From contig JAXGNG010000001.1 in assembly GCA_040768125.1 (NCBI GenBank), forward strand, positions 1,095,318 through 1,159,317: 64,000 nt of DNA, in the 5' to 3' direction. This document shows, piece by piece, positions 30,032 through 31,765 of the stretch. The position numbers and the translations under genes are program-made. Within the stretch, counting starts at the first letter, position 1. Each line of letters opens with the position of its first letter. The notes under the pieces were generated by a model. It made no database searches. It saw only the letters and a list, made by a program, of their open reading frames with translations, and had not been told where the DNA came from. The DNA is from Spirochaetota bacterium. Lineage in GTDB: Bacteria > Spirochaetota > UBA4802 > UBA5550.

Positions 30032-31765
30032 ATGTTCAGGATCAGGGCGCTCCATTCCACGACGCTGCCGGGCCAGAGGGACCGTATCGGCCAGGTCCAG
30101 AGATTGCTGAGGGAAAACTTTCCCGAGAACGCGTCGTACGCCGACAGGATACCGGAGATGCTCGACCGGCCCTTCTCCTTCGGCTATCGGTCCGTGGTCC
30201 TCACGGCGGAGACGACCCTGGGGCGCGTGAACGGGTTCGTCCTGGTCATCCACTTCCCCTCGATCAATTTCTCCTTCATAGACTATATCGCGGTGAGCTC
30301 GCGGCACCACGGGAGCGGAATCGGGAGCGCCCTCTACGAGGCGGCGCGGGAGTACTGCAGCGGGATCGGCTCCCGGGGGATCTTCTTCGAGGTTGACCCG
30401 GACGACGCGCCCCCGGAAGGGAAGCCGGGGGCAATGGCGGCGATCCGGAAGCGGATGCGCTTCTACGAGCTCCTGGGGGTGCGCCCCGTCATCAACACCG
30501 TCTACGACGAGCCCGTGGGGCAGCCTCCGACGCGCGCCTACCTGATGTTCGACGGCCTTGACCGCACGGAGCGCCTGGCGAGGGACGACGCAAGGGAGGC
30601 GGTGCGGCGCATCATGACGGACCGCTACCGGATCACGGAACCGGGGTACGTGGACCGCGTGGTGGAGTCCTTCGTCGACGACCCGGTCCGCTTCAGGCCC
30701 TTCCGCTACGTGAAGCCGGAGGACCTCTACCCCGCGGTAACGCCTGGACGGCTCGAGAAGAAATTCATCCTGGTGACGGGTGACAACCACGCGATACACC
30801 ACGTGAGGAGCAGGGGCTACGTCGAGCGCCCGGTGAGGGTCGAGGCCATCCGGGAGGTGATGGTGCAGTCGGGCCTTTTCACGACCGTGCCCGTGCGCCA
30901 TTTCCCCGAGGAGGTCGTGACCGCGGTACACGACCGGCACTTCGTGAGGTACCTGAAGACCGTGTGCATGAAGCTCTCCGGTGACCGTCCCGTGTATCCC
31001 GACACCTTCCCGATACGGCGCCCCGACAGGAGGCCGAAGGACCTTCCGGAGCAGGCGGGGTACTACTGCATCGACACGAGCACGCCCCTTGACCGGAACG
31101 CCTACCAGGCGGCCCGGGGGGCCGTCGACGTGGCCATGACCGCGGCGAATGAGCTCCTCGCCGGGGCCCGGGTCGCCTACGCCCTCACGCGGCCCCCGGG
31201 CCACCACGCCGAGCGCCGCGTCTACGGGGGCTACTGCTATTTTAATAACGCGGCAATCGCCGCGCACCACCTGAGCGGATCGGGGAACGTGGCGGTCCTC
31301 GACCTTGACTTCCACCACGGCAACGGCACCCAGGACATCTTCTACCGGCGAAAAGACGTGCTCACGGTGTCGATCCACGGGCACCCCGACCAGTCCTATC
31401 CCTATTTCAGCGGCTTTGCCGACGAAATCGGAGAGGGCGAGGGCGCCGGTTTCAACCGCAATCTTCCCCTTCAGCCGGGGAGCGACGGCGAGGCGTATTT
31501 AGCCGCCTTCGAGCGCGCCCTCTCCATCGTGAAAAAATATTCACCGGCCTTCCTTGTGGTGTGTCTCGGCTTCGACATCCTCCGGGGAGACCCCACGGGC
31601 ACCTTCAGGGTGCGCGTTCCCCTCTACGAACGCATGGGGAGGGGGATCGCCGCCCTGGGCGCTCCCCTCCTCCTGGTCCAGGAGGGGGGCTACAACCTGA
31701 GGAACCTGCGGCGCGGGGCCGCGGCGTTTTTTTCCGGGCTGTCGGCGGGTTTGTCGGAAGCGTGA
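30032..31765 (+). CDS. Fusion protein: N-terminal GNAT acetyltransferase + C-terminal HDAC-superfamily deacetylase (AcuC/APAH-like)
   Basis: GNAT motif A RHHGSGIGSALYEAA (res ~95-110). Deacetylase motifs RPPGHHA, GGYCYFNNAAIAA, DLDFHHGNGTQDIFY, CLGFD and QEGGYN are all intact. Starts 20 nt after the MCP stop. Confidence 0.85.
   Translation: MFRIRALHSTTLPGQRDRIGQVQRLLRENFPENASYADRIPEMLDRPFSFGYRSVVLTAETTLGRVNGFVLVIHFPSINFSFIDYIAVSSRHHGSGIGSALYEAAREYCSGIGSRGIFFEVDPDDAPPEGKPGAMAAIRKRMRFYELLGVRPVINTVYDEPVGQPPTRAYLMFDGLDRTERLARDDAREAVRRIMTDRYRITEPGYVDRVVESFVDDPVRFRPFRYVKPEDLYPAVTPGRLEKKFILVTGDNHAIHHVRSRGYVERPVRVEAIREVMVQSGLFTTVPVRHFPEEVVTAVHDRHFVRYLKTVCMKLSGDRPVYPDTFPIRRPDRRPKDLPEQAGYYCIDTSTPLDRNAYQAARGAVDVAMTAANELLAGARVAYALTRPPGHHAERRVYGGYCYFNNAAIAAHHLSGSGNVAVLDLDFHHGNGTQDIFYRRKDVLTVSIHGHPDQSYPYFSGFADEIGEGEGAGFNRNLPLQPGSDGEAYLAAFERALSIVKKYSPAFLVVCLGFDILRGDPTGTFRVRVPLYERMGRGIAALGAPLLLVQEGGYNLRNLRRGAAAFFSGLSAGLSEA

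Follow-up and report, generated by a model that had tools for sequence, protein, structure and literature searches.

Here, a gene in a 64,000-nucleotide stretch of the genome of a Spirochaetota bacterium (contig JAXGNG010000001.1, positions 1,095,318 to 1,159,317; referred to below as the window, whose first base is position 1) is identified as encoding a genuine fusion of a GNAT-type acetyltransferase domain and a Zn-dependent deacetylase domain in a single polypeptide. The open reading frame (ORF) occupies 30032..31765 on the forward (+) strand, stop codon included, begins with ATG and specifies 577 amino acids (aa), as supported by Pfam matches and homologs. The deacetylase half is of the acetylpolyamine amidohydrolase (APAH) type and, in part of the family, the gene lies in a cassette with a KamA radical-SAM aminomutase and ATP-grasp ligases. 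The fusion protein is predicted to be a cytoplasmic bifunctional enzyme, an acetyltransferase/deacetylase for small β-lysine- or polyamine-like amines; taken as a whole, we give this prediction an even chance of being right.

One polypeptide with two enzyme domains

Both domains score above the Pfam thresholds, in agreement with an earlier sequence-only reading of this DNA, which proposed one polypeptide with a GNAT and an HDAC-type deacetylase half. Hist_deacetyl covers aa 264-569 (E 5.4e-77, 259.5 bits, profile positions 2-297 of 298) and Acetyltransf_1 (PF00583) covers aa 52-126 with 32.4 bits, where the gathering cutoff is 20.7. The six motifs quoted in that reading, RHHGSGIGSALYEAA, RPPGHHA, GGYCYFNN, DLDFHHGNGTQ, CLGFD and EGGY, were all found at their exact positions. 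The ATG is taken to be the correct start codon because homologs open with the same M-[FI]-R-I-R as the window protein.

At least 120 full-length homologs of 564-635 aa were found, with query coverage of 97-100% among the matches listed, and the exact window protein also occurs on a 1.74-Mb contig at NCBI. Genomic context was examined at 82 loci in many phyla (numbered L001, L002 and so on), and a one-genome-per-species scan gave 80 loci that encode the same continuous fusion protein. Because the continuous ORF and its conserved connector recur in at least 120 homologs and 82 independent loci from independent assemblies, and the exact protein is on record at NCBI, a frameshift or misassembly joining two adjacent genes is ruled out as the origin of the fusion, with nothing found in its favour and next to no probability left to it. 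The fusion loci span Spirochaetota, Planctomycetota, Desulfobacterota, Chloroflexota, Bacteroidota, Gemmatimonadota, Synergistota, Nitrospirota, Alpha- and Gammaproteobacteria, and others. Used as the sole query against a set of 1.84 billion, the N-terminal 240 aa matched 189 representatives (50% identity clusters) at E<=1e-10; of the 150 proteins listed, 143 are matched from a position within their first 40 residues. Each domain comes from a known superfamily and the fusion is already visible in databases, where a cluster mate, MBN2078095.1, has as its sole annotation 'histone deacetylase family protein [Spirochaetota bacterium]' and some family members carry the JGI label 'AcuC-like enzyme/GNAT', yet it is unstudied as a bifunctional class.

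An APAH-type deacetylase of a distinct subfamily

The C-terminal domain spans aa 245-577 (30764..31762, +), as delimited by Pfam (PF00850), sequence matches in the PDB and Foldseek. Over the whole chain it scores ~230 bits against APAHs (PsApaH 9GKZ, MrApaH 3Q9B, MsAPAH 6PHR and BpAPAH/3MEN), compared with ~135 bits against single HDAC6 or HDAH domains. The top 16 PDB matches by fold are all APAHs, again over the whole chain (template modelling (TM) score 0.88-0.93, root-mean-square deviation (rmsd) ~2.2 Å), and the next fold class, HDAC6 and HDA15, follows with E-values ~8 orders of magnitude weaker. Among the 60 sequence matches and the 50 fold matches listed, APAHs come best and class IIb/HDAH proteins next, and class I or AcuC-type entries are absent. 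In the survey of Graf et al. 2024, APAHs form cluster 4, the sole cluster in which bacterial polyamine deacetylases were found, and AcuC falls in cluster 2c (PMC11532494). The label AcuA-AcuC-like, which the sequence-only reading had given to the protein, is not upheld: the deacetylase is of APAH type by both sequence and fold, and the GNAT half reaches no curated family.

Residue conservation was assessed in an alignment of 65 homologs, down to 39% identity, with the roles of the catalytic residues, the lid role of the L1 loop and the definitions of the gatekeeper motifs following PMC11532494. RPPGHHA (aa 387-393; 31190..31210, +) holds the catalytic dyad H391-H392 (65/65) and GGYCYFNN follows at aa 399-406. 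DLDFHHGNGTQ (aa 424-434; 31301..31333, +) provides the charge relay residue D424, the Zn ligands D426 and H428 and the second charge relay residue N431, all 65/65, while the third Zn ligand, D515 (65/65), lies in CLGFD (aa 511-515; 31562..31576, +) and the catalytic Tyr554 (65/65) in EGGY (aa 551-554; 31682..31693, +). An invariant P521-T522-G523 (65/65; 31592..31600, +) aligns with the position of the PEG motif in HDAC10 and of PIS in bacterial APAHs. The L2 loop, which is equivalent to the polyamine-specificity loop (YPDTFPIRRPDRRPKDLPEQAGYYCIDTSTPL, aa 322-353; 30995..31090, +), can be aligned without gaps to L2 of PsApaH and MrApaH and has the same length; its invariant positions are Y322, F326, P327, R329, G343, C346, D348 and P352, of which R329 is the counterpart of R95 in PsApaH.

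The C-terminal 330 aa thus defined resemble the bacterial APAHs of M. ramosa (3Q9B), Pseudomonas sp. (9GKZ) and P. aeruginosa (PA1409) end to end, with ~37% identity, the TM scores given above, all of the Zn-binding and catalytic residues and an extended L2 of equal length. The fusion differs from them in its additional N-terminal GNAT domain and conserved connector, in having PTG rather than PIS, in lacking MrApaH Glu106, in having Arg, Ser or Lys at the position of PsApaH Asp163 and in its Arg-rich L2. By sequence and fold the deacetylase represents a separate subfamily of APAH-type domains, and its substrate could be something other than a classical polyamine.

A divergent GNAT domain and a conserved connector

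The GNAT domain comprises aa 1-178 (30032..30565, +), as delimited by Pfam, AlphaFold2 (AF2) secondary structure and Foldseek. Modelled alone with AF2, it has a predicted local distance difference test (pLDDT) score of 84.6 and shows the canonical topology β1-α1-α2-β2-β3-β4-α3-β5-α4-β6-β7 (β1, aa 3-7; α1, 13-29; α2, 31-45; β2, 53-60; β3, 66-75; β4, 80-88; α3, 97-111; β5, 117-121; α4, 132-147; β6, 151-153; β7, 170-174). Foldseek returned 557 PDB matches at E<=0.001, and the best 50 of the 557 are all GNAT-type acetyltransferases; the matches include GCN5, PCAF, Ard1, EctA, PaiA and AAC(6'), with target-normalised TM scores of 0.59-0.80, mostly 0.72-0.80, and identities of 10-21%. A profile search against solved structures found GNATs only, weakly (best E 3e-4) and centred on motif A. 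This motif, the acetyl-CoA pyrophosphate loop (RHHGSGIGSALYEAA, aa 91-105; 30302..30346, +), aligns to motif A of solved GNATs, and its signature Q/R-x-x-G-x-G/A is present between β4 and α3 as H93-G94-S95-G96-I97-G98. G96 and Y102 are found in 65/65 homologs and G98 in 63/65, and the Q/R position is variable. The earlier description of the N-terminal region as a GNAT with an acetyl-CoA motif agrees with both the fold alignments and the conserved glycines.

Residue E120 on strand β5 (30389..30391, +), which is Glu in 60 and Asp in 5 of the 65 homologs, is by analogy a candidate general base. On helix α4, the motif FYELLG (30461..30478, +) contains F144 (65/65), Y145 (64/65) and E146 (63/65); a tyrosine is the general acid in SSAT/SpeG-type GNATs, and Y145 is by analogy a candidate for the same role. 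None of the curated NCBIfam acetyltransferase families was reached by the domain, the best being rimI with 16 bits against a cutoff of 86. Identities as AblB, SpeG, PaiA, EctA or streptothricin acetyltransferase were considered for this domain and for the small cassette GNAT described below (C3) and found no support, with matches sub-threshold at best; an AblB model was not listed for either even at E<=10, though the library's possession of such a model is unconfirmed. Judged from its sequence, the GNAT domain is divergent yet has intact catalytic residues.

The full-length protein, modelled with AlphaFold2 from 121 sequences, has a mean pLDDT of 90.9 and a predicted TM (pTM) score of 0.89, which argues for a defined arrangement between the GNAT and deacetylase domains. 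The two are joined by a connector (aa 179-244; 30566..30763, +; pLDDT ~85-97) in which helices at aa 184-198 and 204-212 precede an extended segment, VVESFVDDPVRFRPFRY, with the consensus VVESFxDDPVRFRPxRY. Within the connector, S213 (65/65), P218 (55/65), R222 (61/65) and Y226 (53/65) stand out, and in the model the connector, ~65 residues long, is conserved, well ordered and rigid. It leads into the L1-loop region RGYVERP (30812..30832, +; G262-Y263 65/65), which is a lid element in APAHs; L1 residues 261-263 are the least confident part of the model (pLDDT <50). Against what we take to be the N-terminal sequence of MrApaH, L1 (aa ~250-266) seems ~7 residues shorter.

Conservation and subfamilies

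Because the functional residues are near-invariant across the 65 homologs, both domains are under selection for catalysis-type residues, with purifying selection acting on each of the two active sites. The sequence-only reading had predicted a self-contained reversible switch, and the part of this proposal that places two complete sets of conserved catalytic residues on one chain stands, while the switch would more probably act on a metabolite than on a protein.

A neighbour-joining tree, together with diagnostic residues, divides the family into two. Subfamily I consists of the proteins of the window, L001, L002, L003, L004 and L077 with a basal group, and is marked by A104, R266, R330, R334, F525 and N558; the markers of subfamily II are R104, S/A266, N330, P334 and W525. 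The diagnostic residues (aa 104, 266, 330, 334, 525 and 558; nt 30341-31705) lie in or near the L1/L2 substrate loops, and the two subfamilies may differ in substrate preference.

A cassette with KamA and ATP-grasp genes in relatives

Clustering of neighbouring ORFs, with Pfam and NCBIfam assignments, revealed a recurrent same-strand cassette composed of a KamA radical-SAM aminomutase, two Ddl-like ATP-grasp proteins, the fusion and a GNAT of ~160 aa (C3). Cassette genes were counted by tblastn, independently of ORF calling, when they lay within 6 kb on the same strand. At least one was present at 41 of the 82 loci, 27 of which have the full set; for loci with adequate flanks the count is 22 of 44. 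KamA adjoins the fusion at 30 of the 82, and 27 of these have the full cassette. Most full cassettes belong to subfamily II and subfamily I is mostly solitary, with the exceptions of L077 (57% identical to the window protein), where the order is KamA, fusion, ATP-grasp, ATP-grasp, and L002, where it is KamA, fusion, ATP-grasp. A full tight operon is found in a cultured type strain, Rhodovulum marinum DSM 18063 (L076:4867-10256), in the order KamA, ATP-grasp, ATP-grasp, fusion, small GNAT.

The cassette KamA is ~60% identical to the lysine 2,3-aminomutase of C. subterminale (2A5H) and keeps the residues aligned to R134, D293, D330 and K337 of that enzyme, which reportedly bind the lysine carboxylate, the ε-ammonium group and pyridoxal phosphate (PLP). 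Since these lysine- and PLP-binding residues are kept, the cassette is expected to start from β-lysine. The ATP-grasp ligases form a distinct Ddl-type subfamily that scores 84-97 bits against true Ddl, below the NCBIfam cutoffs. C3 is a paralog of the N-terminal GNAT of the window protein (31% identity over 156 aa), and at nine independent loci (L018, L028, L033, L034, L039, L047, L050, L051 and L059) it forms an in-frame C-terminal extension of the fusion, giving GNAT-APAH-GNAT proteins of ~750-770 aa. C3 (e.g. L072:7983-8462) is also orthologous to PDB entry 2R7H (Dde_3044; 123 bits, E 9e-35), whose name, 'putative D-alanine N-acetyltransferase', probably derives from neighbouring Ddl-like genes.

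Dehalococcoidia with the cassette are represented by L019, L020, L023, L048 and L072. Dehalococcoides mccartyi CBDB1 reportedly encodes nine GNATs alongside just one Zn-dependent deacetylase, and its most heavily acetylated peptide in stationary phase lies in one of these GNATs, CbdbA937 (PMC7918482); these proteins may correspond to cassette genes. No AcsA or Che genes were found among the recurrent neighbour clusters across the loci. The remaining clusters were set aside, C4 (histidine kinases), C6 (ABC ATPase) and C9 (sigma-54 activators) as generic families, and C5, C7, C11 and C12, which have no Pfam match, as probable antisense ORFs of the crude ORF calling. A 944-aa ORF at L047 that appeared to join ATP-grasp and fusion proved to be an N-terminal over-extension, tblastn showing two separate ATP-grasp genes there, and an 878-aa ORF at L077 is likewise N-terminally over-extended.

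Genomic context of the window copy

In the window, the fusion gene lies directly downstream of a gene for a methyl-accepting chemotaxis protein (MCP; 28420..30012, +; MCPsignal E 5.5e-32) that ends 19 nt before the fusion ATG; the sequence-only reading had pointed out the adjacency and put the spacing at 20 nt. A scan of the 19-nt gap found neither a promoter-like nor a terminator-like site, and the two genes are probably co-transcribed. The MCPsignal domain (aa 303-458) is the sole significant Pfam domain of the MCP, and its N-terminal ~190 aa contain several hydrophobic transmembrane-like stretches with no sensor or HAMP domain recognised by Pfam. The adjacency was found only in the window and at L001, from a Spirochaetota metagenome-assembled genome, where the fusion is 81% identical and the gene order is syntenic with the window (glyS, hexapeptide transferase, GT4, MCP, fusion). 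Relatives at 58-62% identity have the fusion among unrelated housekeeping genes. The MCP-fusion adjacency is lineage-specific, and the chemosensory link that had been drawn from the close spacing finds no echo among the other close relatives.

A terminator-like GC hairpin with a T-run is present at 31706-31734 (+), within the final ~60 nt of the fusion ORF and ~30 nt before its stop codon; sites of this kind are no more numerous in the region than expected by chance. Convergent with the fusion gene is an arsenic-resistance operon on the reverse (-) strand (31785-36132), with genes for ArsR (35785-36132), an ArsP-type permease (34431-35738), a small thioredoxin (34177-34413), an ACR3/SBF efflux protein (33079-34173) and a low-molecular-weight protein tyrosine phosphatase (LMW-PTP) type ArsC (31785-32303). 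A Phd/YefM antitoxin gene (32741-33025, -) and a PIN toxin gene (32367-32765, -) are inserted between ACR3 and ArsC.

Proposed function and alternative explanations

The family is often found in a β-lysine operon and therefore probably edits small amine metabolites rather than chemotaxis proteins. Its substrates would be amines or peptides derived from β-lysine or lysine, or else molecules resembling polyamines that end in an N-acetyl-aminopropyl or -butyl group, and probably not protein lysines; an APAH-type site would take a slender N-acetyl-aminoalkyl chain, such as that of Nε-acetyl-β-lysine or its conjugates. The GNAT domain may put on the acetyl group for protection or charge neutralisation, with the deacetylase taking it off again after ligation, at another step or from another nitrogen. 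A futile cycle could be avoided by this separation of steps or nitrogens, or by reciprocal control of the two activities with the GNAT domain tethered to L1, the lid of the APAH active site; the latter option is suggested because the connector runs straight into L1. Since the window copy is solitary, we can only infer its substrate, and a specific link of this copy to β-lysine is held tentatively, as somewhat doubtful and weaker than the general reading.

Several observations weigh against the assignment to small amines. The 64 kb of the window contain no KamA or ATP-grasp gene and the closest relatives of the window copy are likewise solitary, so that the transfer of the β-lysine context rests on cassette-linked relatives that are ~55-57% identical. 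The L2 loop is Arg-rich (FPIRRPDRRPK), unlike the acidic entrance described for APAH, which speaks against a purely polycationic ligand. The PIS motif of cluster 4 is replaced by the invariant PTG, and MrApaH Glu106 has no conserved counterpart, the position being P, S or A with V or L adjoining, although Glu106 is missing from PsApaH too (PMC11532494). PsApaH Asp163, the salt-bridge partner of R95 in the dimer, corresponds to R, S, K or G in the family (R396 in the window). PsApaH accepts AcsA-K549ac and some Lys(Ac) peptides as deacetylation substrates in vitro (PMC11532494). Finally, the top fold matches of the GNAT domain are the protein acetyltransferases GCN5 and PCAF, but at 16% identity and an rmsd of ~5 Å.

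Some of these points would equally suit a reversible protein-lysine switch of the AcuA/AcuC kind, with chemotaxis or acetyl-CoA synthetase proteins as possible targets. Two activities with intact catalytic residues on one chain, an MCP gene 19 nt upstream with no signal in between, the measurable activity of PsApaH on Lys(Ac) peptides and AcsA, the GCN5/PCAF-like fold and a PTG motif (PxG) that is closer to the PLG/PKG of HDAC6 than to the PIS of APAHs are all compatible with such a switch. The deacetylase, however, is APAH-type and not AcuC-type or class I, and the GNAT domain reaches no AcuA or other protein lysine acetyltransferase family, the presence of an AcuA model in NCBIfam being unconfirmed. 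The MCP is adjacent only in the window and at L001, and the protein substrates proposed earlier, such as AcsA or Che proteins, give way to the recurrent partners KamA, ATP-grasp ligases and a further small GNAT, which are small-molecule enzymes. A protein-lysine switch is accordingly judged improbable.

We see a similarly small probability that the protein is an amine or polyamine deacetylase in which the GNAT domain transfers no acetyl group and serves instead as an acetyl-CoA/CoA-sensing or oligomerisation module that gates the active site through the L1 lid. Such a role would fit the divergence of the domain (32 bits to Pfam, E 3e-4 at best to solved GNATs), the variable Q/R position of motif A and the rigid, conserved connector that leads into L1, the gate of the APAH active site, and the separate paralogous GNAT C3 of the cassette could then supply the transferase activity. 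Conservation nevertheless extends beyond CoA binding to catalysis-type residues (E120, 60 E + 5 D; Y145, 64/65; Y102, 65/65), and no C3 was found in the available stretches of L002 and L077, of which L077 ends ~1.7 kb downstream of the fusion; these cassettes would then be without another GNAT.

The fusion might also be a stand-alone polyamine homeostat for spermidine, putrescine or cadaverine that is unrelated to β-lysine, with the cassette representing another role elsewhere in the family. The APAH-type fold and L2 loop, the solitary, housekeeping-like contexts in the clade of the window copy and the L1/L2 substitutions that set this clade apart from the main cassette clade (A104, R266, R330, R334, F525, N558) are in line with this idea. 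On the other hand, L002 and L077 of the same subfamily are flanked by KamA and ATP-grasp genes, and the Arg-rich L2, the missing Glu106 and the missing PIS argue against classical recognition of a polycationic polyamine; the homeostat, too, is assigned a low likelihood.

The small-amine reading can be taken a step further. The family may be the hub of an undescribed β-lysine pathway that consists of the aminomutase, two ATP-grasp ligations and the putting on and taking off of an acetyl group, with the fusion as a reciprocally regulated metabolite writer-eraser whose GNAT domain is mechanically coupled to the L1 lid. This is a speculative proposal that we regard as rather unlikely in its full form.

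Relation to known systems and significance

Bracketing of diamino-acid steps by an N-acetyltransferase and an N-deacetylase, in an acetyl protect/deprotect logic, is familiar from ArgA...ArgE, from Pat/Dea of bialaphos synthesis and from the kamA-yodP-yodQ β-lysine operon of B. subtilis, all of which differ in having separate proteins, M20/ArgE-type or other deacetylases and no ATP-grasp pair. Opposing activities on one chain under reciprocal regulation are found in Rel/SpoT, GlnE, AceK and PFK-2/FBPase-2, with other chemistry. To our knowledge, there is no example of a bifunctional writer-eraser of acetylation that combines a GNAT with a Zn-deacetylase, and none was met in the literature searched. 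AcuA and AcuC of Bacillus subtilis, which control AcsA, are alike in concept as a GNAT writer and a Zn-dependent eraser; there, they are encoded by separate genes, AcuC is of the class-I-like cluster 2c (PMC11532494), and no linkage to acsA or acuABC was detected at the fusion loci.

The AblA/AblB pathway makes the compatible solute Nε-acetyl-β-lysine in methanogens and some bacteria (PMC1224877). The cassette resembles it in placing a KamA/AblA-type aminomutase beside one or more GNATs, and AblA is the model that the cassette KamA matches best (477 bits), albeit below the AblA equivalog cutoff of 525; unlike AblA/AblB, it also includes a deacetylase and a pair of ATP-grasp ligases. The structure 2R7H, from Desulfovibrio desulfuricans G20, appears among the fold matches of the N-terminal domain as well as being an ortholog of C3 and, unlike the fusion, is a stand-alone structural-genomics protein of 159-177 aa.

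Full-text searches met with no published description of the GNAT-deacetylase architecture or the cassette, an amidoligase survey that possibly covers the neighbourhood (Iyer et al. 2009) lying outside that search; GNAT fusions are not mentioned in the survey of Graf et al. 2024 (PMC11532494), and the fusion is not described in the Dehalococcoides acetylome paper (PMC7918482) or in an Asgard preprint.

With its GNAT domain rigidly joined to a deacetylase of APAH type and the two active sites conserved across many phyla, the fusion defines a new bifunctional enzyme class. The classical Zn-deacetylases of bacteria are poorly understood and public annotation misses the GNAT half of this protein; the framing in terms of chemotaxis and AcuABC is tempting but unsupported and should be dropped. 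The operon partners hint at a β-lysine-derived metabolite in anaerobic and marine bacteria, the cassette gives a first context to the orphan structure 2R7H, and cultured hosts of the pathway are available in Rhodovulum marinum DSM 18063 and probably D. alaskensis G20. If the extended proposal is true, the fusion would toggle a β-lysine-derived amine or peptide between cationic and neutral forms, as an osmolyte, polyamine-like or self-protection rheostat, and would be the acetylation counterpart of the Rel/SpoT-type bifunctional enzymes, in a β-lysine pathway that would be widespread in sediment and marine bacteria.

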